Shown here: piece by piece, positions 3,390 through 55,755 of the stretch
How the letters are laid out: each line of letters opens with the position of its first letter
Position numbering within the stretch: the stretch's first letter is position 1
DNA from: a virus
UHGV virus genome: UHGV-0209830
DNA: 59,500 nucleotides
Strand: one strand, 5' to 3'
Program-made: the position numbers and the translations under genes
Notes under the pieces: model-generated
Told to the model about the DNA's origin: nothing
Databases searched by the model: none
Seen by the model: the letters and a program-made list of their open reading frames with translations, nothing else

Positions 3390-4211
3390 TTAATAATGGT
3401 TAGCCATCCATTCAGATCTAATTGATGGGATAAACTCTCTATTGAGAAAGGGGACGTACAGTGTGGTTGTCACATCTGCACCCTCCTTAGCGTTTTTGCA
3501 ATGTTGCGGAGGCAGGATCAGTCGGCTTGAGCCTCTCTCAATAGACATTTTCAGGCCGTGGCGTAGGTCTTTTTGCATAAGCTGTATGCGAGCCACAAGC
3601 GGGGTAAATTCGGTTTCAAGCGCCATGCTTTCAATGATGTCAAAGCGTCGGTTAGCGGCCTGCGTGAAGTCCTCCGGATCGTCTTCAAGCGCCGTGCATA
3701 AAGCGAGTTCAGCAATTCGCATCCGTGCTACGCCAGCACTGTATTCGGGAGTTTTCATATCAGGAAGTGACGCTCGCATTCGTTCAAGGAGTTCCGCGCC
3801 TTTCCCGGTTAATGGTTTAAGTATCCAGTCAGTTGGTACTCCATTTACTGGTACGTTGGTTTTCACGTAAGGAGGTACAGTGAGTATTTCTACTGTTTGG
3901 GCCAGGTCGCTCAGGTTAATATCTGCATGATGCGTATTACCGCAGTGACTGCACTCATAGGAGTAGGTCATTACTGCATCGGGGCGCGAATTAACAAATA
4001 TCCACCAAAGAGCAGTTCTGCGGTCCTGAACTGTCCAGTTAGCACTGTCGTTAATTTCACCATCCTGCATAGAGTTAAGGTACTCTGTAGTCGTTGCCTC
4101 ATCTTCTGCCGGGTTCAGGTCAGAATATTTCAGCGCATCCTTCACGGTAGGGGCGTGGAACTGAATTTCTGTCTCAGGATGGGAAGGCAATGGGAATTTT
4201 GGAATGTTCAA
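3390..4211 (-). CDS. Hypothetical protein (273 aa)
   Basis: ORF track; TTG start as listed; between replicon and large virion gene. Confidence 0.5.
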   Translation of the reverse strand: MNIPKFPLPSHPETEIQFHAPTVKDALKYSDLNPAEDEATTTEYLNSMQDGEINDSANWTVQDRRTALWWIFVNSRPDAVMTYSYECSHCGNTHHADINLSDLAQTVEILTVPPYVKTNVPVNGVPTDWILKPLTGKGAELLERMRASLPDMKTPEYSAGVARMRIAELALCTALEDDPEDFTQAANRRFDIIESMALETEFTPLVARIQLMQKDLRHGLKMSIERGSSRLILPPQHCKNAKEGADVTTTLYVPFLNREFIPSIRSEWMANHY

Positions 4212-4339
4212 TTATTCCTCCGAAAAGCAGGTATCTGTTCATTTTCCAGAGGATAGGGAGTGTGTGATTTGCGATGGGGATTGAATGAAGATCTTTGCCG
4301 GTCGAGAAGCGATTATTGAGGGTGATTTTTACACCTTAA

Positions 4340-4450
4340 GTGACGCTACTCACATATCCACAGAGTATTTTTATAAACCTTTTTCCATTTTTAATCCTTT
4401 TTAGATCCTTTTTAGGCGTCGCTGGAGCCAGTAGTGGCGCGGGCTGTAGA
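4340..4450. promoter_or_regulatory. AT-rich origin region with DnaA-box-like atatccaca upstream of iterons
   Basis: AT-rich run with ccttttta repeats and 8/9 match to TTATNCACA immediately upstream of iteron array. Confidence 0.4.
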
Positions 4451-4457
4451 GGAGGCT

Positions 4458-4575
4458 GGTGTAAGATTTGCCCTCAATTAAATACGATCGGTGTAAGATT
4501 TGCCCTCAGAAGGTGTAAGATTTGCCCTCAAAAGGTGTAGTAATTGCCCTCAAAGTGGTGTAAAAATTGCCCTCA
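4458..4575. repeat. Origin iterons: five 19-bp direct repeats ggtgtaagatttgccctca (and variants) at about 22-32 bp phasing
   Basis: Copies near 4458, 4490, 4512, 4534, 4557 directly upstream of rep gene. Confidence 0.85.
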
Positions 4576-4599
4576 CCATTTGAAGGATCACACAGGGTT

Positions 4600-5355
4600 A
4601 TGAACAGAGCGGAATTAACAGCAAAAGCCGTCAGCCTGATTGAGTCAGCGACACCTATTAGTCGTAGTCTGGCACAAGCCAATGAGATCACGGAGGCTGC
4701 TTATCACCTGACTCGCGACCAAAAGCGACTGTTGTTTATTGTGGTGGGAAGACTTCGCTATGCTTCTAAGGATGGCGTTCTTGGTTCAGGTGCCTGTGAG
4801 TTGACGGTCAACGAATATGCAGAGATGTATAATTTGCCCTCTGCTGAAGCCAGCAAGGATATTCGTAAGGCCATTTCAGGGCTTAGCGAGAAGAAAGTTA
4901 CGATATATAACCCTGATGAATCGACCGAATCAGAAGACAGTTATGAGTCTTATCCCTGGATGATTAAGGATGCCTATTCACCACGGCGCGGGACTTACAT
5001 TATTCATCTTAATCCATATCTCATGCCGTTTTTTACTCTGCTTGATAAGAGATTCACAAGGCTGAATTTTACCGAAGTATCTCGCCTTACAAATCCTTAT
5101 TCTATGCGGCTTTATGAGTCCTTATGCCAGTACAGGAAGGATGATGGAAGCGGCTTTGCCATACTTGGCGTCGAATGGATGCGGGAGCGTTATGGGTTAC
5201 CAAAAAGCTATCAGCGGTATGCCGAATTTAAGAGAAGTTTTTTAACGAAGGCTGTAGCAGAGATTGAAAAAAATACAAAAATGAAAATAGTCTTCTCAGA
5301 GGTGACGGAAGGCGGCAAAGTTACCAGGATAAAATTTACCTATCAGCAGTCTTAA
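4600..5355 (+). CDS. repE: Replication initiator, F RepE-like (iteron-binding Rep)
   Basis: Recalled F RepE motifs conserved: EAAY..RDQKR, SAEASKDIR, ESYPWMIK, NPYLMPFF, NPYSMRLYESLCQYRK, LPKSYQRY; track ORF starts 4567 but ATG MNRAEL at 4600 lies after last iteron. Confidence 0.85.
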   Translation: MNRAELTAKAVSLIESATPISRSLAQANEITEAAYHLTRDQKRLLFIVVGRLRYASKDGVLGSGACELTVNEYAEMYNLPSAEASKDIRKAISGLSEKKVTIYNPDESTESEDSYESYPWMIKDAYSPRRGTYIIHLNPYLMPFFTLLDKRFTRLNFTEVSRLTNPYSMRLYESLCQYRKDDGSGFAILGVEWMRERYGLPKSYQRYAEFKRSFLTKAVAEIEKNTKMKIVFSEVTEGGKVTRIKFTYQQS

Positions 5356-5647
5356 GGGCAATTTTTACACCCCTCTCAAGGTGTAGAATTTGCCCTTAAC
5401 GATCGGCAATTGAGGGTAATTTTTACATCTTAATTGCATGTATCTTGTTATTAGCAAGTTGTGTTTTTATATAACGTATTGATATGTAAGGATTATGTAA
5501 AAATCGCCCTCAACCAATATCGTGCGTATCGTGCATTCTTATTGCGCTTTTTTATTATCATTCACTGTGTTAACTGATTGATATTATTGAAATATGTAAA
5601 GAATGCCTTCATTGCTGATGGATTGATGATGTAAAAAATGCCCTCAA
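5353..5647. repeat. Downstream iteron-like repeats in both orientations (incC-like copy-control array)
   Basis: taagggcaatttttacacc, ggtgtagaatttgccctta, tgagggtaatttttacatc, atgtaaaaatcgccctca, gatgtaaaaaatgccctca interspersed with AT-rich DNA. Confidence 0.7.
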
Positions 5648-5736
5648 CATTGCGCTACCTTCCCTACCCGCTATCGTTGAGGTCGTGGGTGCTGACGGGA
5701 AATGAGCAACCCTCCAGCACACATAATTAAAGCTAT

Positions 5737-6444
5737 TCAGAATTTGATCACTCCACTCACAGCCCCCTTTAACGCGCTTGTAGCCATGCCAGCGGCACCG
5801 TTGACCAAAGCAGAAACACCTGAGCCTGCGGATGTGTATTTCTGGAAAGTGATTGGATATGACAAGAACTCTGACACCTGGTCTCGTGAGCGGGTGATTT
5901 CCCCAAGTTGAGTGGGGAATACGCGCATTTCCTCTTCCAGTTCTTTACCGCCATCCTGAGTTACCCGGTAGAGCCGGATCTTCATTAGATATTCAGGAGG
6001 AAGGTTTATTGTTCCGTCCGGGTTTGTCACGCGGGAACGACGCTCTTTGAACCAGTTCATGATCTTGCCGTCTTCGGTATCCCTTACGGTCATCGTGACT
6101 GGTCCGGCGGTGACGTAGGTTGGCTTGCTGAACTCTACGCTACCTATCACCTTGTTTTCTGTCTCGATATTTCCGCTGCTGTAGGTGATATCCTTCACGA
6201 ACATATCGAAACCGTTCAGACCGTCCACTTCAACCGTCCACTGCCATCCCTGGGCGTAACGAATACGCATAGCGGCAGCAACAATATTTTTCCCGTAGGC
6301 AATATCGCTGCTGTAGTTCCCACTTACCCCGCCGCCGGATATTGCTTTATCCAGAATGTCGCTAATGAGGTTGCTGGTGAATGATTTTGTGTTAAATGAC
6401 AGTGCGGTGGTCAACGTTCTGCCAACGCTGCTGAAAATACTCAC
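5737..6444 (-). CDS. Hypothetical tail-associated protein (235 aa)
   Basis: ORF track; co-oriented in tail gene block. Confidence 0.45.
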   Translation of the reverse strand: MSIFSSVGRTLTTALSFNTKSFTSNLISDILDKAISGGGVSGNYSSDIAYGKNIVAAAMRIRYAQGWQWTVEVDGLNGFDMFVKDITYSSGNIETENKVIGSVEFSKPTYVTAGPVTMTVRDTEDGKIMNWFKERRSRVTNPDGTINLPPEYLMKIRLYRVTQDGGKELEEEMRVFPTQLGEITRSRDQVSEFLSYPITFQKYTSAGSGVSALVNGAAGMATSALKGAVSGVIKF

Positions 6445-8205: not shown

Positions 8206-8946
8206 TTACAAACCGCGTTTTTTGCGAATGCGCATTGATTTTTTGCGGTTGATATTCGCTACGGATGTATGTGCTTTGCGGCGTGCTTTTTTCAGCGCCT
8301 GTTTTTGCAATGACGTCATGCGGCGAGGACGCGGGCGTTTACGGATGATGGTAACCTTGCCATCACGAACCACTTTTTTACGTACCGCTTCCAGCATTGC
8401 GCTATCACCACCAGCAACGGTGTAAATGGCAATAGCTGTTTCCATCATGTCGGTGTCGCTTTCGGAAAGAGCGTCAAAAACACGTTCGGCAGCTGAGTCA
8501 TCTTCATCGTCGATCATTTCGGTTACATCGTCCTGATCAGCGCCAAGCGCAACAGCTGCATCAGCAAGAGCTGCGAGAGCATCGTTATAAGCATCGATTT
8601 GTTCATCGGTGAAATCGGTGCCTTCATCGATATCAGCCAGGCCAGCCATAGTGATTGCTAATGCATCAAATGAGTCAGCCTCCGGATCACCATCTTCAAC
8701 CCAACCAGCAAGCATGGACGCTGCCAGGCTGCGCATATCACCTTGTGCACGGGATTCAACCGCTTCCATCATCGCGGTTTCAATGTCGTCTTTGGGCTTT
8801 GGTTGAGTGTCCTTTCCTTTCTGTCCTGCGCTTTCCAGCATGGCGTTATCATTATTGTCCTGAGTGGATTTATCACCGCTTTCAAAGCAGCCAGAACCGA
8901 AAATCGCACGCATAAACGGATCAGCAGTATAATTTTTCATATTCAA
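8206..8946 (-). CDS. Acidic hypothetical virion protein with basic C-terminal tail (246 aa)
   Basis: ORF track; very D/E-rich with KR-rich C-terminus. Confidence 0.45.
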   Translation of the reverse strand: MNMKNYTADPFMRAIFGSGCFESGDKSTQDNNDNAMLESAGQKGKDTQPKPKDDIETAMMEAVESRAQGDMRSLAASMLAGWVEDGDPEADSFDALAITMAGLADIDEGTDFTDEQIDAYNDALAALADAAVALGADQDDVTEMIDDEDDSAAERVFDALSESDTDMMETAIAIYTVAGGDSAMLEAVRKKVVRDGKVTIIRKRPRPRRMTSLQKQALKKARRKAHTSVANINRKKSMRIRKKRGL

Positions 8947-8983
8947 ACCTCTCTCCCCCGCATCATTTAGCGGGGGTTATAAA

Positions 8984-10642
8984 TCAGCGCATCAGAATTG
9001 GCTTACCGACGATTCGGCGAGCTGTACCGGTCGGACAAACAGACCAGGCCACTTCCCACAGATCGATGTCCTTTTGGACAACCTGAACAACATATGGATC
9101 TTCACCCTGGGACTTGTCACGTGGAGTAACCAGCGCACCGGCTGCAACGTAACGGTCAAGCAATTCAGTCATTGCTTTCATTAGCGCTTCTTTGGTAATG
9201 CCATCCGGTTCGTGCTTAATCGCCTGAGCAACTTCGTAGAAATTGCGTGCGATAGCGTTCATCAGGGACGATACGTGCTGGAATCGCAGATAGTTGTTTT
9301 TGCTGTAAGTTGTTAAAGAGTCGTCAATGTAAACGGACCCGTCAGCAGCAACTGAAACTGGATTAATGCGCGCAAGAACGAACGCTTCACGATCAACTGC
9401 ACCGATATTTGGAATTCGGGCAATGTTCTGTCGTTCAATAATCGCGCGTGATATACCTGCCGGTGCGTAATGCCAACCACCAACATCCGGTACCAGCGCC
9501 ACTCCTTTTGCCTTCGCTACGAATGCGTCGCAGCTAATGCCATAGACGACATTCATTCCAGTGAAAGTATCTCGGCAGGAGAGCGGGAAGTAGTAACGGC
9601 TTGGTTGATGTGAGCCGCCAAAACTATGGCTTTTCGCTTCTGAAATAGCGTTTTCAGGTGTCTGGTTGCCCTTCAGGTCATAGAACATGTCTACGCGAAC
9701 ATCTTCAGCCAGCTTTTTGATTGCGGCTAAGGCGGATGCGTCATAACAACCCAATGACAGCAATGCGGTGTAATTAACCTCTGAAGCTTCGAGAACCTTT
9801 AATGCTTCCAGATAGTCTGCAGCGGCAATTTCGGACAGATTTCCATCAGTACCACCTTCAAAAGCCACATCCTCAAAAATGAGTTGAGCAGCGGATGCTT
9901 CTGCATTATCTGCCAGTACGGCACCAATGCGAGTGGACTGGCTTTCAAGCAGTGTCGGAATCCATGCTGGTTGGCCCATGTCGTTGGTGCCTTCTGGATT
10001 GAAAGACACCTGGTGGCTTTCCAGCACCTCAATGGACCCATCGGTTTGTTTTTCTTTCAGCGTCAGCGTAAAGAGTTTGCTTTCTTCATCATCGCGAGTT
10101 AGTGATAACGTGCGATTTTGAGATGCATCACCATCTTTGATGAAGAATAATGCCTTCTCTCCACCTTTAATCTGGGGCGTCTCTTTGGGTGTGAAGGTCA
10201 CTGATTGAGTCGTTGCAGTTGGAGCAACACCAACGCTTAATGTGTCACCTAGATTTGCTGTGGTTTCAGTAGGTTCAACGGAAAGTTCTTTGCTCGCCTT
10301 TGCCGCTTTTGCTTTGCCCACAACGGAAACAGAAATACCCGGCACCTTCATGTCTTTAGCGCAAACTCGAACGACATATCCAGAGCCGCCTTTTACTGCA
10401 CGCTCCACGTGGCGATATGGTTCAAATGCCGCGCCCAGGCGAGGGTGAATCGGTGAACCTAATACGCTTTGATAAGTCGTATCGTCAACTTTCAGTACCT
10501 TACCCGGTGCGCCACGACGCGATATTACAAGCCCAGCAAAGACGGATGCGCCACCGCTGGTATTGGTGAGGGTAGCGTCAGCATTTACTGACATTACAGC
10601 AACGCCAGCTGCCTGCCCTACCGAAAAACTAATCTTATTCAT
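8984..10642 (-). CDS. Putative contractile tail sheath protein (552 aa)
   Basis: Size, position upstream of tube gene, C-terminal region resembling sheath C-terminal domain pattern. Confidence 0.5.
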   Translation of the reverse strand: MNKISFSVGQAAGVAVMSVNADATLTNTSGGASVFAGLVISRRGAPGKVLKVDDTTYQSVLGSPIHPRLGAAFEPYRHVERAVKGGSGYVVRVCAKDMKVPGISVSVVGKAKAAKASKELSVEPTETTANLGDTLSVGVAPTATTQSVTFTPKETPQIKGGEKALFFIKDGDASQNRTLSLTRDDEESKLFTLTLKEKQTDGSIEVLESHQVSFNPEGTNDMGQPAWIPTLLESQSTRIGAVLADNAEASAAQLIFEDVAFEGGTDGNLSEIAAADYLEALKVLEASEVNYTALLSLGCYDASALAAIKKLAEDVRVDMFYDLKGNQTPENAISEAKSHSFGGSHQPSRYYFPLSCRDTFTGMNVVYGISCDAFVAKAKGVALVPDVGGWHYAPAGISRAIIERQNIARIPNIGAVDREAFVLARINPVSVAADGSVYIDDSLTTYSKNNYLRFQHVSSLMNAIARNFYEVAQAIKHEPDGITKEALMKAMTELLDRYVAAGALVTPRDKSQGEDPYVVQVVQKDIDLWEVAWSVCPTGTARRIVGKPILMR

Positions 10643-12832: not shown

Positions 12833-12963
12833 GGTTAAGCCCTAAATTCGGGCGCGGCGTGAAGGTTCTTTTGACGGGCTAACAATACCTACTTTGTGAT
12901 TTAGTCAATAGTTTTAGTAAAATAAAATCTATTAACAGTCACGTTGTTATGTGATTTAATTTT

Positions 12964-15894: not shown

Positions 15895-16851
15895 ATGCGC
15901 ATTTTTATCGATGATGGTTCAACCAATATCAAAATGCTGTGGGAGCACGACGGGGAAACTCGCACTCACATCAGCCCTAACAGCTTTAAGCGCGGATGGT
16001 CAGCAACATTTGGTGCTGGCAAGCCGTTTAACTATGTCATTGACGACGAAAAGTATTCGTATGATTTGATCTCGCCAGATGTTCTGCCGACGAATAACGT
16101 GGAATGGCAATACAGCCCGCTTAACGTCCTGGCTGTTCACCATGCCCTGCTGACAAGTGGCATTGAGCCGCAGGAAGTAGAAATTGTGGTCACGCTGCCT
16201 CTGGCGGAGTTTTACGACGACGACGCGCAATACAATCTCGATAACATCGAGCGCAAGAAAGCCAGTCTTATGCGCCCCGTCACGCTGAATAAAGGCAATG
16301 TGTTCACGATTAAGAAAGTTACGGTACGACCGGAGTCTATTCCGGCAGGAATTGGCCTGTGCGACAATCTGAACCCTGCCCATTCTGTTCTTATCGTCGA
16401 TTTGGGTGGAACTACCCTTGATGTTTCAATGGTCGCCGGGCAAATGACGGCAGTTTCCCGTGTTTTTGGCGATTCGAATCTTGGTGTATCACTGGTCACC
16501 AGGGAAGTAAGGCAAGCACTTGCAAGGGCCAATACCGAAACGTCAAATTACAATGTCGATCAGCTCATTATTAACCGCCACGATGAAGATTATCTGAACG
16601 ACAATATCAATGACCCATCAGCGATTGATGATGTGAAAAAGGCCATTGCCGCAAGCATTGACCGTTTGTGTACCCGCGTTCTTGATGTGATTGGCGACTT
16701 TAAAGGATATACGCATGTCATGGTGATCGGTGGTGGCGCACCGCTGGTGGCAGATGCAATTCGCGAGCAAGTTAATATTCGTGATGACCGTTTCTTCGTG
16801 GCGGATGACCCGCAACTTGCTCTTGTTCATGGCCTGAAAGCAATCGGTTAA
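15895..16851 (+). CDS. parM: ParM/StbA actin-like plasmid segregation ATPase
   Basis: Strong similarity to recalled R1 ParM (FIDDGSTNIK, HISPNSFK, ESIPAG, DLGGTTLD, GYTHVMVIGGGA); ATG at 15895 with RBS, track ORF over-extended upstream. Confidence 0.9.
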   Translation: MRIFIDDGSTNIKMLWEHDGETRTHISPNSFKRGWSATFGAGKPFNYVIDDEKYSYDLISPDVLPTNNVEWQYSPLNVLAVHHALLTSGIEPQEVEIVVTLPLAEFYDDDAQYNLDNIERKKASLMRPVTLNKGNVFTIKKVTVRPESIPAGIGLCDNLNPAHSVLIVDLGGTTLDVSMVAGQMTAVSRVFGDSNLGVSLVTREVRQALARANTETSNYNVDQLIINRHDEDYLNDNINDPSAIDDVKKAIAASIDRLCTRVLDVIGDFKGYTHVMVIGGGAPLVADAIREQVNIRDDRFFVADDPQLALVHGLKAIG

Positions 16852-16858
16852 CGAGGTA

Positions 16859-17203
16859 ATGTCCATGTCTCAGGAACGTAAGAAAGTGATGATTTATCTT
16901 CGCCCAGAGGCTTATGCCAATGAAAAGGCGGCGAGCGAGAAGATAAAAAAACATAGCGATATGGCAAGAACCGCATTGTTGGCAGGGCTTGCGCTGGGAG
17001 AAGTCGATAGCAGGCTTCCAGGATTACTGGCTTCCCTGCTGACCGAAGATAATAATCCGGAGCTGATCCGAAAAATGCTGGCATCCTTCCTGGAACTACC
17101 AGCTGCGGCTGAGGAGCGCCCTGCCTCCATTGAGCCAGCGAAGGAGCAAGTTGTTGCCAAAAGCGCGTCGGCGCGCAATCTGGCTGACTCTCTACCTGAT
17201 TGA
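16859..17203 (+). CDS. parR: ParR-like centromere-binding adaptor
   Basis: Small protein immediately after parM; RHH-like N-terminus; stop followed by terminator. Confidence 0.6.
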   Translation: MSMSQERKKVMIYLRPEAYANEKAASEKIKKHSDMARTALLAGLALGEVDSRLPGLLASLLTEDNNPELIRKMLASFLELPAAAEERPASIEPAKEQVVAKSASARNLADSLPD

Positions 17204-17490: not shown

Positions 17491-18132
17491 ATGATTATAT
17501 TGGTAGCCAGCCAAAAAGGTGGCTGTGGCAAATCAACCACCAGCGTAAATATTTGTGCGGAGCTTGCCCGCGCAAATAAGGACGTAGTTCTACTTGATGC
17601 AGATAAGCAAGGAACATCTGCCCGTTGGGCATCGGACCGTAATGCGGCAGAGGTTTCTCCAGTAATTCATTGCGTCCAGAAGTTTGGGAATATTCGTGAA
17701 ACACTTCTTGATCTGGACAAGCGTTATGAATTTGTGGTTGTTGATACCGCTGGTCGTGATAGCAAAGAAATGCGCACCGGTATTACTGCGGCGGATGTTT
17801 TGCTTGTTCCATTCAGGCCATCTCAGCCAGATTTAGACACTCTGGCGCATTTTGTTGAAGTCTTTGAAGAGGCTTTGGATCTGATGCCTAATCCTAGCAT
17901 TAAGGCGTGCGCAGTCTTAACAATGGCCCCATCCAATCCGGTTGTGAATGAAGCCAATGAGGCCAAAGAGTACCTGGCTGAATATCCGCAACTGAAGTTG
18001 CTGAAAACCATCATTCGCGATCGCAAGGTTTACCGCGATTGTATGGCTGAAGGGAAGGGCGTTGTTGAGATGGACAACGGGAAAGCTAAAGGTGAAATCC
18101 AGATGTTGGTTAAGGAGTTATTAAGTGATTAA
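17491..18132 (+). CDS. parA: Small ParA-family partition ATPase (type Ib, ParF-like)
   Basis: Deviant Walker A KGGCGKST near N-terminus, about 213 aa from ATG at 17491 with RBS gaggaa. Confidence 0.85.
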   Translation: MIILVASQKGGCGKSTTSVNICAELARANKDVVLLDADKQGTSARWASDRNAAEVSPVIHCVQKFGNIRETLLDLDKRYEFVVVDTAGRDSKEMRTGITAADVLLVPFRPSQPDLDTLAHFVEVFEEALDLMPNPSIKACAVLTMAPSNPVVNEANEAKEYLAEYPQLKLLKTIIRDRKVYRDCMAEGKGVVEMDNGKAKGEIQMLVKELLSD

Positions 18133-18412
18133 GCCTCGTAAATCGGTAAAAGCCCCCGAAGTAAAAGACCTCGATCTTGAACGCCGAATTGAGGCTTTTG
18201 CCAGCAAAGCTGATTTGGTGCCGGGTGAGCAACCAGAAGACAACAAAGTGCTCGATAAGGACGCCCCACGTGATTTTAAATCCATTCGTGTTGGCTTCAA
18301 TGAATACGAGTACCAGGTACTTGATGCGTTAAGCAAAAAGCATAATCGCAGCAAATTGAATATGATCCGCCATGCTATCCTCATGTTAGCGGAGTCTGAG
18401 GAAGCAAAATAA
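18125..18412 (+). CDS. ParG-like small centromere-binding partner
   Basis: 95 aa, GTG start overlapping parA stop, helical C-terminal RHH-like region. Confidence 0.55.
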   Translation: MIKPRKSVKAPEVKDLDLERRIEAFASKADLVPGEQPEDNKVLDKDAPRDFKSIRVGFNEYEYQVLDALSKKHNRSKLNMIRHAILMLAESEEAK

Positions 18413-18680: not shown

Positions 18681-20342
18681 ATGAGTGAGGCAGAAGCCCG
18701 CCCGACTAACTTTATTCGTCAGATCATCGATGAAGATCTGGCAAGTGGTAAGCACACCACAGTACATACCCGTTTCCCGCCGGAACCGAATGGCTATCTG
18801 CATATTGGTCATGCGAAATCTATCTGCCTGAACTTCGGGATCGCCCAGGACTATAAAGGCCAGTGCAACCTGCGTTTCGACGACACTAACCCGGTAAAAG
18901 AAGATATCGAGTACGTCGAGTCGATTAAAAACGACGTTGAATGGTTAGGTTTTCACTGGTCTGGTAACGTCCGTTACTCCTCCGATTATTTTGATCAGCT
19001 CCACGCCTATGCTGTTGAACTGATCAACAAAGGCCTGGCGTATGTTGACGAACTGACGCCGGAACAGATCCGCGAATACCGCGGCACCCTGACGCAGCCG
19101 GGTAAAAACAGCCCGTACCGCGATCGCAGCGTTGAAGAGAACCTGGCGCTGTTCGAAAAAATGCGTGCCGGTGGTTTTGAAGAAGGTAAAGCCTGCCTGC
19201 GTGCGAAAATCGACATGGCGTCGCCGTTTATCGTGATGCGCGATCCGGTGCTGTACCGCATTAAGTTTGCTGAACACCACCAGACTGGCAACAAGTGGTG
19301 CATCTACCCGATGTACGACTTCACCCACTGCATCAGCGATGCGCTGGAAGGTATTACGCACTCTCTGTGTACGCTTGAGTTCCAGGACAACCGTCGCCTG
19401 TACGACTGGGTGCTGGACAACATCACCATTCCTGTTCACCCGCGCCAGTACGAATTCTCGCGCCTGAATCTGGAATACACTGTGATGTCCAAGCGTAAGC
19501 TGAACCTGCTGGTGACCGACAAGCACGTTGAAGGCTGGGATGACCCGCGTATGCCGACCATTTCCGGTCTGCGTCGTCGTGGTTACACTGCGGCTTCTAT
19601 TCGTGAGTTCTGCAAACGCATCGGCGTGACCAAGCAGGACAACACCATTGAGATGGCGTCGCTGGAATCCTGCATCCGTGAAGATCTCAACGAAAACGCC
19701 CCGCGCGCAATGGCGGTTATCGATCCGGTGAAACTGGTTATCGAAAACTATCAGGGCGAAGGTGAAATGGTCACCATGCCGAACCATCCGAACAAACCGG
19801 AAATGGGTAGCCGCCAGGTGCCGTTTAGCGGTGAGATTTGGATCGATCGCGCCGATTTCCGCGAAGAAGCTAACAAGCAGTACAAACGTCTGGTGCTGGG
19901 TAAAGAAGTGCGTCTGCGTAATGCTTACGTCATTAAGGCAGAACGCGTCGAGAAAGATGCCGAAGGTAATATCACCACCATCTTCTGTACTTATGACGCC
20001 GACACCTTAAGCAAAGATCCGGCTGATGGTCGTAAAGTCAAAGGTGTTATTCACTGGGTGAGCGCGGCACATGCGCTGCCGGTTGAAATCCGTTTGTATG
20101 ACCGTCTGTTCAGCGTGCCTAACCCAGGTGCTGCGGATGATTTCCTGTCGGTGATTAACCCGGAATCGCTGGTGATCAAACAGGGCTTTGCTGAACCGTC
20201 GCTGAAAGATGCGGTTGCGGGTAAAGCATTCCAGTTTGAGCGTGAAGGTTATTTCTGCCTCGACAGCCGCCATTCCACGGCGGAAAAACCGGTATTTAAC
20301 CGCACCGTTGGGCTGCGTGATACCTGGGCGAAGTTAGGTTAA
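18681..20342 (+). CDS. glnS: Glutaminyl-tRNA synthetase
   Basis: Near-identical to recalled E. coli GlnRS; HIGH motif and VMSKR present; own leader and terminator. Confidence 0.97.
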
Positions 20343-28471: not shown

Positions 28472-28664
28472 AACAAAGCCTCTCAGTCATAACCTGGGGG
28501 AAACTGTATGCAGGGTGTGAAATGCGAGAAACAGACAGGCCACCAGTTCAGGGGGATGTGGTTCATAAATCCCCTCACTGGTGACAAGTGACTTTCATTA
28601 ATCTTTATGCGGGGGCCAGCTTCATTTGCTGGCATTAGATTAAAAATTAAACGGAGTGAATGAC

Positions 28665-36049: not shown

Positions 36050-37045
36050 ATGAGTGCAATAATCACACCTCATTTCGTAAACGGAGCTGGTGTGGCTGTC
36101 TTTCCGGTAGACAAGCCCACCAGCAACTACATTGGCGCAGGTCGCCGTTTCATTATCTCTCCACTTCCGCGCGAACAGGCTGAAAACACGCCAGATGGCG
36201 TAGTGGATCTGAACTATTCGCTGGTTGCCAACCAGTCTCTGAAAGCATTTTTTCAAAGCGAGCGCGTATTTAACGCATTAGGCGGTGAAGATTCGCTTGT
36301 TCATTGGGTAAGTTCCAATATCCACGATTGCCAGGCGCACGATAAGCGCGATTGCAGCCACCAGCTAACCACTCATTTCTATAACGGCTCTGCCGTTCGC
36401 CTGTGCTGGAAGCATGATGCGGAATACATGATGAAGGGGTACGGCAAGCTGGATGACCAGTTATCCCTGAATCGTGCCAACTGGGTTATGAACTGGGCTG
36501 CGAGCGAGTTAAAACTACCGCCAGAACGCGATCTGAGCATGGTTGAACTCACTTTTTGGGCCATTCGCCGGAATCTGAAAGACGAGCTGCCAGATGAAGC
36601 CGGTCGCATTGCATTTTGTCAGCCAAAACAGGAAATCCCTACCGGCACACTGAAAGAATCGGATATCACCTGGGAGCACAGCACCCGTGAGCTGGTGGAC
36701 ATAACCGCAGAACAGATCGTCAACCTGTCTGTAGATGAGGATTCCGGCCTGCTGTATATGCGCCGACCAAAAGCGGTCCTCGGTAAAAGCCCGGCTTATC
36801 TCCGGTTTGTGGTTTCTCGTCCGTGCATCGGATGCGGTGGCAAAGTTAACCACCCGTTCATGTACCGCGCCCGCTCGTTAAACGAACACGATCGCTGGGC
36901 CGTTCCTCTTTGCGATGAATGCGCCAGAAGCGCAGAAAACGATGTCCGGGCATGGGAAAAAGCACATGGCATACGCCTTTACGTAGCCGCCAACCAGCTT
37001 TTCGACTTCGCCATCGAGCGCGGAGTGATCACGTTCAATAACTGA
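36050..37045 (+). CDS. Hypothetical protein with C-terminal Cys-rich zinc-ribbon-like region (331 aa)
   Basis: ORF track; CIGCGG...CDEC. Confidence 0.5.
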   Translation: MSAIITPHFVNGAGVAVFPVDKPTSNYIGAGRRFIISPLPREQAENTPDGVVDLNYSLVANQSLKAFFQSERVFNALGGEDSLVHWVSSNIHDCQAHDKRDCSHQLTTHFYNGSAVRLCWKHDAEYMMKGYGKLDDQLSLNRANWVMNWAASELKLPPERDLSMVELTFWAIRRNLKDELPDEAGRIAFCQPKQEIPTGTLKESDITWEHSTRELVDITAEQIVNLSVDEDSGLLYMRRPKAVLGKSPAYLRFVVSRPCIGCGGKVNHPFMYRARSLNEHDRWAVPLCDECARSAENDVRAWEKAHGIRLYVAANQLFDFAIERGVITFNN

Positions 37046-50384: not shown

Positions 50385-50773
50385 AAAGCAACACCACGCT
50401 TTTTAACGGCGGCATTCCACAGCTTATTCGCCATGTCCACCAGCTCTCGTTGCTCTTTTCGCGCCTGTTCGACTGATTTCCTGCTACAGTTTTTAACCAG
50501 TAAACTGCCGTATTCAGGGGTTCGCCCACGCACCTTGAACTGATATCCGTTCAGGCCATGCAACCAGTATTTTCGTGGGTAAACGCGATCATCAAGCTCA
50601 CAGATTGCCCTGCTTGAACGAACAAAATGACGAATGATGTTAGTTACACTTACTCGTGAGACATGGAGATGAGGGTATTTTTCTTTGGCGAGAATGGTAA
50701 TTTCAGTGACTGTCAGATAGCAGTCAGCCCTAATCATGATATCCGCAATTTCTGCGCTGCTGATTTGTTCCAT
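50381..50773 (-). CDS. Hypothetical protein (130 aa); Lpa-like late-promoter activator candidate by synteny
   Basis: Immediately upstream of pacA with operator-like palindrome upstream; no sequence-level confirmation. Confidence 0.35.
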   Translation of the reverse strand: MEQISSAEIADIMIRADCYLTVTEITILAKEKYPHLHVSRVSVTNIIRHFVRSSRAICELDDRVYPRKYWLHGLNGYQFKVRGRTPEYGSLLVKNCSRKSVEQARKEQRELVDMANKLWNAAVKKRGVAL

Positions 50774-52302: not shown

Positions 52303-52378
52303 TGGTGGCCCCTACCGGACTTGAACCGGTGACCGTGCGATTATGAGTCGCCAGCTCTAACCACTGAGCTAAAGGGCC
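52303..52378 (-). tRNA. tRNA with CAT anticodon, tRNA-Ile2 (lysidine) type
   Basis: 76 nt cloverleaf with encoded CCA; anticodon loop CTCATAA; near-identical to recalled E. coli ileX; Met not excluded. Confidence 0.8.
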
Positions 52379-54393: not shown

Positions 54394-54469
54394 TGGTGCC
54401 GGTTAACGGACTCGAACCGCTGACATCCTGCTTACAAGGCAGGCGCTCTACCAACTGAGCTAAACCGGC
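54394..54469 (-). tRNA. tRNA-Thr (TGT anticodon)
   Basis: 76 nt cloverleaf, anticodon loop CTTGTAA, T-loop TTCGAGT, encoded CCA. Confidence 0.8.
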
Positions 54470-54471
54470 AT

Positions 54472-54547
54472 TGGCGATGGTGGATGGATTTGAACCATCG
54501 ACCCGTTGATTAACAGTCAACCGCTCTAACCGCTGAGCTACACCATC
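54472..54547 (-). tRNA. tRNA-Asn (GTT anticodon)
   Basis: 76 nt cloverleaf, anticodon loop CTGTTAA, T-loop TTCAAAT, encoded CCA. Confidence 0.8.
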
Positions 54548-55272: not shown

Positions 55273-55755
55273 TGGGGATATCCCCGGCCTTACCCCATTC
55301 TTTCAAGACACAATGCAAGGCCACATCCGCATAGGTGCATTACCGCAACATTAAGGAGGCATAGGGCGGTTACCTTTTGCCCTGAGTCTCCTTAATGTTG
55401 AAGATGTGCATTGATGATTAGATGCAGCATGTACCGTTACTCTCTGCCGGACCATCATCAATGAACACCTTAAAAAGACCTTCCGTGGCTCAACATGGAC
55501 TGTCGTTTACTCCGCAAAGTGCTCTCTCTGAAACCACTTTCCGCACTAAACCTGCTGAACTTTGGCCTGCACGGTGCCAAAGCGTGCTCTTGCATTGCTA
55601 TACTTTTCTAACGCTTTAATTTGTTAAATGCTGGTGGGCGAACAATAACCAATAAGTGACTATCAAGCCCAGCAAGCGAAACGTGGGTGCCGCCCACCAG
55701 CAAGGAAAATTCTATGTTAAGTTACCTTCACAATCAATACGTTCGAATCGTAATT

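Follow-up and report, generated by a model that had tools for sequence, protein, structure and literature searches.

The locus between pmgB and tub in the phage genome UHGV-0209830 raises the question of what kind of replicon it carries, whether this replicon is of the F or of the P1 type, and how it came to lie among tail genes. In the window, meaning the whole stretch of 59,500 nucleotides that was analysed, the replicon is bordered by the following features:

3390–4211, minus strand: pmgB homologue of 273 amino acids with a TTG start, left flank, outside the replicon (39% amino acid identity to P1 PmgB, E = 9e-70; counterpart D6 orf41, annotated as PmgB-like)
4212–4267, no strand: spacer upstream of pmgB, common to all three replicon variants, with the left exchange junction at its right end
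5737–6444, minus strand: tub (tail tube) homologue, right flank, outside the replicon (50% amino acid identity to P1 Tub, E = 2e-54; counterpart D6 orf43)

The sit gene lies to the left of pmgB on the minus strand, and the gene order sit-pmgB-rep-tub-pmgC-bplB-pmgG-21-22-23 agrees with the annotation of phage D6. The preliminary description of this DNA placed a replication module within the tail gene block with both flanks on the minus strand; this is confirmed by the gap between pmgB and tub, which is 14 bp in P1 versus 1.5 kb here. No convincing P1-type late (Lpa) promoter was found upstream of pmgB, where GCGTCACTT..TAAAAA is a poor match with the wrong spacing. A P1-like late promoter site precedes gene 23 (12926–12944). 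Two partition loci of StbA/ParM-like and short ParA-like types (15895–17200 and 17491–18409) are located about 10.5 kb from the replicon.

The feature is already known, because its Rep protein is 100% identical to that of the already annotated orf42 of phage D6, the rep gene of a published element, and no new kind of replication system is present here. The orf42 region of D6 is the same element, with rep between pmgB and tub in D6 too, and nothing substantive differs between the two replicons (98.6% nucleotide identity over a 1.6-kb region). The D6 record labels orf42 just as ‘similar to P1 gene repA?; pfam01051’ and annotates no origin or iteron features. The window belongs to the D6-like elements (P1g2 group), having a backbone near-identical to and syntenic with that of D6, and its partition and glnS genes are 96–99% identical to their D6 counterparts at the amino acid level. 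The closest matches to the window are plasmids of E. coli and Shigella (99.7–99.8%); altogether, plasmids of E. coli, Shigella and Salmonella match at up to 99.8% nucleotide identity and are about 80–97 kb in size (one record 216 kb). There are 111 matching PLSDB records, 108 of which are typed as non-mobilizable. The repB gene of pYU39_89, which is D6-like, has been described as ‘associated with iteron sequences’ (PMC6799933).

Judged by its sequence anatomy, the region 4268–5709 is a complete iteron replicon. It is very probably the theta-type, iteron-controlled replicon that maintains a D6-like phage-plasmid in its plasmid state. The following parts can be distinguished:

4268–5709, plus strand: exchangeable RepE-type module (origin, rep and downstream iteron array), colinear in 17 of 22 D6-like loci and without homology to locus L025 in the same slot
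4317–4335, minus strand: single inverted iteron, GGTGTAAAAATCACCCTCA, upstream of the DnaA box (position weight matrix (PWM) score 21.9; member of the inverted-repeat pairs I6–I11)
4354–4362, plus strand: DnaA box ATATCCACA, matching TTATCCACA at 8 of 9 positions; TATCCAC is invariant when four relatives and F ori2 are aligned
4363–4413, plus strand: AT-rich T-tract region, the presumed DNA-unwinding element (78.4% A+T versus 52% for the window)
4414–4457, plus strand: GC-rich spacer from the AT-rich region to the iterons (31.8% A+T), conserved in position in relatives and F
4458–4575, plus strand: origin array of five direct 19-bp iterons with a spacing of 32, 22, 22 and 23 bp
4600–5355, plus strand: rep, with its ATG at 4600, encoding a RepE-like initiator of the Rep3 family (251 amino acids, two winged-helix domains)
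4824–4842, plus strand: iteron-like GATGTATAATTTGCCCTCT inside the rep coding region, of uncertain significance (PWM score 18.6; 81% identity to the reference iteron)
5353–5646, both orientations: downstream control-type array of six iterons in the order − + − + + +, located by repeat search and PWM
5531–5557, plus strand: hairpin and T-run resembling a terminator, downstream of rep, from a consensus scan only
5686–5723, both orientations: inverted pair of P1 RepA-type (IncY) iteron-like sequences, TGGGTGCTGACGGG (plus) and TGTGTGCTGGAGGG (minus), whose 15-nt core is the exact P1 iteron consensus

Three of the five origin iterons (4458–4476, 4490–4508, 4512–4530, 4534–4552 and 4557–4575) are exact copies of GGTGTAAGATTTGCCCTCA. 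Allowing up to three mismatches, the iteron pattern has seven matches in the window, against 0.01 expected from shuffling. The five origin copies were used to build a PWM, which was scanned over the 59.5 kb with shuffled sequences as control; it gave 13 sites (shuffle mean 1.2), and all but one of these fall within the 1.3 kb between 4317 and 5646. The AT-rich region contains five (C/T)(C/A)TTTTT repeats and a GATC at 4404, and is alignable with the corresponding AT-rich stretch of F ori2 (TATTTTTATAA ... TTTTTAG). Only one good DnaA box is seen in the origin, preceded by a degenerate copy; F carries two boxes in tandem at this position. The downstream iterons are located at 5353–5371 (−), 5380–5398 (+), 5411–5429 (−), 5494–5512 (+), around 5593–5611 (+, a weaker copy) and 5628–5646 (+). 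The first of them overlaps the rep stop codon and forms with the second a 20-nt inverted repeat, the arms being 8 nt apart. This array resembles both incC of F and incA of P1. Direct repeats beside rep at intervals of about two helical turns, a DnaA box and an AT-rich region are the sequence features of an iteron-controlled theta replicon, and all are found. In comparison with the divergent RepE-type loci L029 and L034 the iterons are conserved and the spacers have diverged. Rfam gave no match in the replicon region. Every part named in the preliminary description (DnaA box, AT-rich region, five 19-bp iterons, initiator and a second array in mixed orientation) is therefore present, as listed, with small corrections: the inverted iteron at 4317–4335 and the iteron-like site at 4824–4842 had been missed, and comparison with relatives carrying other replicons moves the boundaries from the 4340 and 5700 given there to 4268 and 5709.

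Both domains of the initiator are recognized by Pfam, as Rep3_N (PF01051, WH1; E = 2.9e-29, 102.7 bits, cut-off 22.4) and Rep3_C (PF21205, WH2; E = 9e-16, 58.3 bits, cut-off 21.1). A phmmer search of PDB sequences matched chains of F RepE over residues 21–249 with E-values of 1e-73 to 4e-74. Identity to IncFIA RepE is 47–51%; tblastn with IncFIA repE genes as targets puts it at 50–51%. Among NCBIfam models, too, RepE ranks first, with a score of 280.6 against the equivalog NF010305 that lies below its cut-off of 342. The aligned counterpart of RepE R118 is an Asp. P1 RepA and the window's Rep both belong to the Rep3 superfamily, yet their pairwise BLASTP comparison is not significant (E = 0.057). 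With P1 RepA as the tblastn query there was no match in the window or in D6, and no P1-like phages were among the tblastn matches of Rep in the phage collection. Apart from orf42, the D6 record has no Rep3-type match. P1 RepA homology of the initiator was rejected on the BLASTP value and the empty tblastn searches, and the view that the initiator resembles F RepE and not P1 RepA, which had been put forward from the sequence at the start, is upheld. The identities of Rep to PLSDB proteins show a gap: 108 records are at 95% or above, one is at 60–80%, and the others, including IncFIA repE at about 50%, are below 60%. Relatives of Rep with 78% and 71% identity occupy other positions in contigs of other P1-related phage-plasmids, and those with 63% and 57% identity are on ordinary plasmids. 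‘F RepE-type’ denotes a relationship to F, not membership of IncFIA.

For the comparison with the ori2-repE-incC region of F, the IncFIA locus of pSFO157 was used as reference, a copy with two origin iterons. The parts come in the same order in both: a DnaA box and an AT-rich region, then direct iterons of 19 bp at intervals of about 22 bp, rep, and a downstream array. The two sequences align from the DnaA box through the AT-rich region, and the GC-rich spacer is likewise placed. The F iteron, TGTGACAAATTGCCCTCAG, is a determinant of specificity and incompatibility. Its right half, TTGCCCTCA, is identical in the window, whereas the left half has another sequence and one base fewer, reading TGTAA(G/A)A in the window and TGTGACAA in F (TGTAA versus TGTGACA where the left halves are compared). 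The F-type locus has an inverted-repeat operator, TGTGACAATCTAAAAAATTGTCACA, between the iterons and repE that the window lacks. An operator of this kind consists of iteron half-sites, overlaps the promoter of repE and is a target of RepE dimers; no such F-style operator was found by eye or with a repeat finder in the window or its four closest Rep relatives. The window has five origin iterons versus two in the pSFO157 copy, F usually being described with four, and its downstream iterons are in mixed orientation, whereas all five point in the same direction in the F-type copy examined. The sop and ccd genes are adjacent in F and pSFO157. The window has no adjacent sopABC or ccdAB, and its neighbour on the incC side is tub. 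With a sub-cut-off RepE score, no operator, no linked sop and a different iteron left half, the replicon is, on this comparison, not an F replicon proper.

With the oriR-repA-incA region of P1 the window shares a DnaA box, an AT-rich region and five origin iterons abutting the start of rep, which would carry the promoter, as well as a downstream control array in mixed orientation. It would also share with P1 its role, the low-copy maintenance of a prophage plasmid in a P1-related myovirus. The P1 iterons, GATGTGTGCTGGAGGGAAA, are unrelated to the iterons of the window's arrays, and the window origin has one GATC versus five GATC heptamers in P1. The sites differ too, the replicon lying between tub and pmgB in the window and beside gene 23 with parAB in P1; the partition genes are linked to the replicon in P1 and unlinked in the window. 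The replicon does not belong to the P1 RepA (IncY) type, as it has no RepA homologue and arrays that are RepE-like in type.

On the analogy of RepE from F and RepA from P1, monomers of Rep would bind the five origin iterons, and Rep and host DnaA, the latter at the neighbouring box, would jointly open the AT-rich region and allow DnaB to be loaded. On the same analogy, the downstream iterons may limit copy number through titration and through handcuffing to the origin. Partition would be provided in trans from the two unlinked loci at 15895–17200 and 17491–18409. Rep bound at the last origin iterons probably represses its own gene. The gap between the final iteron of the origin and the rep ATG is just 24 nt and holds no F-style operator, so that the rep promoter would have to overlap the last iterons. 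We infer this placement, since a sigma-70 consensus scan upstream of rep found no match there; an extended −10-like TGTAAAAAT in the last iteron is proposed as a promoter element. Wired in this manner, the rep promoter and iterons would be closer to P1 than to F.

It is very improbable that the locus is a bona fide F/IncFIA RepE replicon, that is, a captured piece of F, a cointegrate or an assembly chimera sharing the regulation and incompatibility of F. RepE is indeed the best match of the initiator among PDB sequences (E about 1e-73) and the best NCBIfam model, and F ori2 can be aligned with the DNA of the origin and with the right half of the iterons. However, the identity of 47–51% is set off by a clear gap and the score lies under the RepE equivalog cut-off, the inverted-repeat operator and the adjacent sopAB and ccd genes of pSFO157 are missing, the iteron left half is different and one base shorter, and MOB-suite types the replicon as rep_cluster_1704, not IncFIA. 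The sequenced D6 has the module at the same site, as do over 100 independent plasmids and viral contigs; it is therefore not a chimera. Hardly any probability attaches either to the idea that the locus is a relic that has lost its activity or an origin for the lytic phase, with some other function maintaining the prophage plasmid. A late morphogenesis operon is an odd location for a maintenance replicon, the partition genes are unlinked, and the slot does retain leftover iterons from other replicons. Against this, the rep reading frame is intact, and strong purifying selection on it is indicated by its 98.4% amino acid versus 91.3% nucleotide identity to L029 (pmgB and tub of the same sublineages being 81% and 76% identical in nucleotides). 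The iterons are conserved where the spacers diverge, no other Rep3 or P1 RepA-type initiator was found in D6, and wherever a relative lacks the RepE-type module, a different complete iteron replicon fills the slot. As to a lytic origin, D6-like elements have been reported with a separate lytic replication gene, repL (PMC6799933).

The relevant comparison for the origin of this arrangement is with the D6-like elements and not with P1, whose repA sits elsewhere. Among 22 D6-like viral contigs the tub|pmgB slot is occupied by a RepE-type replicon in 17, by a P1 RepA-type replicon in three and by a p0111-like replicon of the RepA family in two. The three alternative initiators have the same slot and orientation, in backbones with pmgB genes that are 90–99% identical. 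Comparing synteny with relatives, as the preliminary description suggested, located the insertion junctions at 4267/4268 and 5709/5710, by blastn against L025 (P1 RepA-type) and L030 (p0111-like) and a three-way alignment of the variants; on the left, blastn homology ends at 4267 with L025 and at 4270 with L030. Beside its own RepA-family gene, L030 keeps the last codons of a RepE-type rep and the downstream iterons. Alternative replicons in one slot and leftover iterons at the junctions therefore support, within the D6 lineage, the replacement of replicons by module exchange that had been suggested earlier from the initiator. Full-length examples in PLSDB number 94 of the RepE type, five of the P1 RepA type (and four more split across the record start) and two p0111-like, and MOB-suite assigns the three slot variants to three different, mutually unrelated rep clusters.

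The P1 RepA-type gene in the slot is 84% identical to P1 RepA; RepA proteins about 72–73% identical to that of P1 were experimentally IncY-incompatible with P1 (PMC10999674). The L030 variant is related to p0111, with about 77% nucleotide identity to the replicon of a P1-like plasmid. The name p0111 was rejected for the window's own replicon, p0111 being the alternative repA of P1-like elements and not related to the window's Rep. Alternation of IncY and p0111 at one site of a conserved P1-like backbone has been described (PMC9603915; PMC10879196), and it has been proposed that phage-plasmids exchange replicases to escape incompatibility (PMC10879196). The slot shows the same phenomenon, alternative iteron replicons at one backbone site, and differs in the D6-like backbone, the tub|pmgB site, the three alternatives (one of them RepE-like) and the leftover iterons at the junctions. 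Among the papers covered by the literature search, none was found that describes such alternation for D6-like elements.

The right exchange junction falls inside the P1-type pair at 5686–5723, where homology to the incA-side iteron of L025 starts. This orphan inverted pair contains the only P1-type iterons in the window, and no P1 RepA homologue was found to be encoded in the window or in D6. The pair is read as a leftover of a P1-type replicon. A role as terminator was rejected, there being no T-run after the hairpin. It is improbable that the pair is a working part, for instance a hairpin with a structural role or a decoy that titrates RepA made by IncY phage-plasmids in competition with the element. 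The pair is kept, with both arms changed, across the D6 sublineage (L026), its cognate RepA is not encoded in cis, and in L004 and L005, which carry the module with the 78%-identical Rep, three such palindromic pairs are each regularly interleaved with the module's own iterons in a 179-bp unit. However, L029 and L034 lack the pair yet keep every other iteron, and it lies exactly at the homology breakpoint against the P1-type variant, as expected of a recombination scar. In addition, what is known of P1 incA suggests that little RepA would be titrated by only two iterons on a low-copy element, and the hairpin, with no T-run, is not terminator-like. There is a small chance that tub|pmgB is a dedicated exchange hotspot, with recombination in or beside iteron arrays and orphan iterons kept as incompatibility determinants against competing phage-plasmids. 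The orphans that come under such a proposal are the P1-type pair, the RepE-type array in L030 and the interleaved double arrays in L004 and L005.

Module exchange in the D6 lineage most likely alters incompatibility specificity, which would permit coexistence with P1-type phage-plasmids. One precisely bounded slot with three replicon types is a clean natural example of a change of incompatibility group, and the leftovers show the direction of at least one swap. The slot is also a convenient system in which to ask whether P1-type competition drives replicon exchange. According to a 2025 preprint, the D6 replication gene is missing from common plasmid-typing databases. It is the replicon that decides with which other plasmids and phage-plasmids a D6-like element may share a cell, and how that element appears to typing tools.

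By its sequence, the region 4340-5700 contains a complete iteron-type plasmid replicon. Its parts and flanks are as follows (window coordinates).

3390-4211 (-): pmgB, 39% amino acid identity to P1
4317-4335, inverted: lone iteron upstream of the DnaA box
4354-4362: single DnaA box, ATATCCACA, 8/9 match
4363-4413: AT-rich stretch, 51 bp, 78% A+T, five T-tract repeats; the spacer 3' of it is 32% A+T
4458-4575, direct: five 19-bp origin iterons, start-to-start spacing 32/22/22/23 bp
4600 (ATG)-5355 (+): rep, encoding the 251-aa initiator Rep with both Rep3 winged-helix domains (Rep3_N E 2.9e-29, Rep3_C E 9e-16)
4824-4842: iteron-like sequence within rep, GATGTATAATTTGCCCTCT, PWM score 18.6
3' of rep: six downstream iterons, order - + - + + +
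5686-5699 (+): P1-type iteron-like arm, TGGGTGCTGACGGG
5710-5723 (-): P1-type iteron-like arm, TGTGTGCTGGAGGG, exact match to the P1 iteron core
5737-6444 (-): tub, 50% amino acid identity to P1

The DnaA box, AT-rich region and five 19-bp iterons of the preliminary description are all present (4354-4575), as is its second, mixed-orientation array, found as six copies 3' of rep; the lone inverted iteron and the iteron-like sequence within rep were absent from it. The sequence GGTGTAAGATTTGCCCTCA is exact in three of the five origin iterons, and the iteron pattern with up to three mismatches matches the window seven times against 0.01 expected from shuffles. A weight matrix made from the five copies at the origin gives 13 hits across the 59.5-kb window, 12 of them inside 4317-5646. 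An isolated match distant from the replicon (36051-36069, minus strand, GGTGTGATTATTGCACTCA, score 17.7) is at chance level (shuffle mean 1.2 hits). The first two downstream iterons make up a 20-nt inverted repeat, and the first of them overlaps the stop codon of rep.

Rep had been described as resembling F RepE and not P1 RepA, and this is borne out. In a phmmer search of all PDB sequences, residues 21-249 match F RepE chains (1REP, 2Z9O, 7UXY and others) at E 1e-73 to 4e-74, the next match being the R6K pi protein at 2e-6, whereas P1 RepA (NC_005856), itself a marginal Rep3 member, reaches only E 0.057 by BLASTP. The check for a closer likeness to P1 RepA therefore came out for F RepE, and tblastn with P1 RepA found no homologue in the window or in phage D6. 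Global identity between Rep and RepE is 47%. By tblastn of Rep against PLSDB, identity is at least 95% in 108 records, 60-80% in one and below 60% in all others, with IncFIA repE at 50-51%. The top NCBIfam model is the RepE equivalog; Rep scores 280.6 bits, under the cut-off of 342, and the RefSeq name is for this reason the generic 'RepB family'. The Asp in PWMIK-D-AYSP (Rep ~aa 124) aligns with RepE R118; several relatives have Arg or Lys at this position, and the divergent RepE-type locus L029 has Glu. R118 is the position of R118P, the change rendering RepE54 monomeric.

The homology to F also covers the origin DNA. When the window, four Rep relatives and the F-type ori2 of pSFO157 are aligned from the DnaA box to the first iteron, TATCCAC is invariant and is followed by TATTTTTA, T-tracts and a GC-rich spacer of conserved position. 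The right half of the F iteron, TTGCCCTCA, is the same as that of the window; its left half is TGTGACAA, whereas the window has TGTAA(G/A)A, one base shorter. In F an inverted-repeat operator (TGTGACAATCTAAAAAATTGTCACA) and promoter separate the iterons from repE. In contrast, there is no inverted half-site between iterons and rep in the window, and only 24 nt lie between the last iteron end and the ATG, from which we infer that the rep promoter must overlap the last iterons, as PrepA overlaps the iterons in the P1 annotation. The four closest Rep relatives share this iteron-to-rep arrangement. A consensus promoter scan returned no promoter at the last iterons or 5' of rep. No sop or ccd genes adjoin the replicon. 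It combines F-like sequences with P1-like wiring and is not a member of IncFIA.

The replicon sits, as originally noted, in the tail gene block with both flanks on the minus strand; these are pmgB and tub, whose P1 homologues are 14 bp apart. P1 repA is located elsewhere, with gene 23/parAB on one side and upfA on the other. With the pmgB protein as query, IMG/VR yielded 22 D6-like loci (pmgB 90-99% identical), with three types of initiator gene between tub and pmgB.

17/22 loci: RepE-type Rep, 98-100% amino acid identity to window Rep, no significant match to P1 RepA
3/22 loci (L024, L025, L028): 287-aa RepA-type gene, 84% to P1 RepA
2/22 loci (L030, L031): 294-aa RepA-family gene, 41% to P1 RepA

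Orientation is identical in all three variants. The DNA of the third shares ~77% identity with a replicon that adjoins parAB in a P1-like plasmid, and this variant is therefore called p0111-like. The same three variants occur in PLSDB (MOB-suite rep clusters 1704, 2221 and 2164).

The module interrupts a late operon that is continuous in P1 (pmgC-tub-pmgB-sit...). Between 4212 and 4345, 5' of pmgB, no convincing P1-type late promoter was found, the one poor match there overlapping the inverted iteron (4317-4335). Gene 23 is preceded, at 12926-12944, by a site that resembles a P1-type late promoter (ACGTGACTG-TTAA-TAGATT), and further candidates lie at 55709-55727 (-), 50694-50712 (-) and 28586-28604 (+). 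Partition is linked to rep in P1 and F but unlinked in the window, where two candidate loci, a StbA/ParM-like gene with partner (15895-17200) and a short ParA-like gene with partner (17491-18409), lie ~10.5 kb from the replicon and adjoin glnS (18681-20339).

Synteny with relatives places the junctions: in blastn against the P1-type variant, homology stops at 4267 and resumes at 5710. Directly past the left breakpoint, both the P1-type and the p0111-like variants open with AGATCC repeats and a TTATCCACA box like those of P1 oriR. The right breakpoint falls within an inverted pair of P1 RepA-type (IncY) iteron-like sequences (5686-5723), of which the TGTGTGCTGGAGGG arm is collinear with the iteron nearest to tub in L025, a P1-type locus. 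This pair, at the tub-side module edge, is an orphan, there being no RepA of its type in window or D6. The divergent loci L029 and L034 keep every RepE-type iteron, with divergent spacers, and have a 45-nt gap in place of the pair, which argues that it is not an intrinsic part of the module; we read it as a probable recombination scar of a P1-type replicon. In p0111-like L030 (3255-3529; also L031), the last RepE-type rep codons (…CAGCAGTCTTAA) and downstream iterons are retained as orphans between the locus's own iterons and tub, beside its own RepA-family gene. In this lineage a RepE-type module was displaced by a p0111-like one. Junctions and leftovers thus document module exchange directly, with the direction known for at least one swap, and the replicon replacement suggested in the preliminary description is supported by three variants in one slot.

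The Rep lineage also occurs elsewhere. A 78%-identical relative lies at a different site on a contig of 87 kb that has P1-like ddrB and darB-type genes. Where this module is carried (L004 8740-9300; also L005), the region 3' of rep holds three ~179-bp tandem units in which the two iteron families alternate regularly, each unit having two iterons of RepE type and one palindromic P1-type pair; the DnaA box is in turn preceded by further direct repeats of P1-like type (L004 7661-7740; also L005). A 71%-identical relative (L006, 8001-8759), on a distant 104-kb P1-related contig, adjoins a gene 23 homologue at about the position of P1 repA. Different 30-bp repeats (GCATAATGC.GCCCACC; 8845-9076) follow this rep, and a 380-aa HTH/metallophosphatase-like gene, also 3' of it, takes the place of P1 parAB. 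Ordinary plasmids, one of them from Nissabacter, carry the relatives at 63% and 57% identity.

The replicon is the known and already annotated one of phage D6 and D6-like plasmids. Escherichia phage D6 matches the region at 98.6% identity, and non-mobilizable plasmids from E. coli, Shigella and Salmonella, mostly of 80-97 kb, match it at up to 99.8% (111 matching PLSDB records, 94 of them over 80% or more of the 1.6-kb query); Rep is 100% identical to D6 orf42, an annotated gene. This analysis adds the exact boundaries, the F ori2 homology coupled to wiring of the P1 kind, and the finding that a single slot is polymorphic for three replicons, with leftover iterons at its junctions. Several observations point to a functional replicon. 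When the window is compared with L029, rep shows 91.3% nucleotide and 98.4% amino acid identity, against 81% and 76% nucleotide identity for pmgB and tub. Rep is the sole Rep3-type match in D6, and D6-like elements are reported to have a separate lytic repL (PMC6799933). The window also carries three tRNA genes on the minus strand (52306-52378, 54397-54469 and 54475-54547; Rfam, gathering threshold).

By analogy with RepE and P1 RepA, Rep monomers would bind the five origin iterons; they and host DnaA, bound at the neighbouring box, would open the T-rich region so that helicase can be loaded. Rep would repress its own promoter at the last iterons, and the six downstream iterons would hold copy number down through titration and handcuffing. 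That phage-plasmids swap replicases to evade incompatibility has been proposed before (PMC10879196; PMC9603915), and a whole-module swap would be expected to alter incompatibility specificity. A RepA ~72-73% identical to that of P1 is experimentally IncY-incompatible with P1 (PMC10999674). At 84% identity, L025-type elements therefore probably clash with P1, whereas RepE-type elements such as the present one probably do not.
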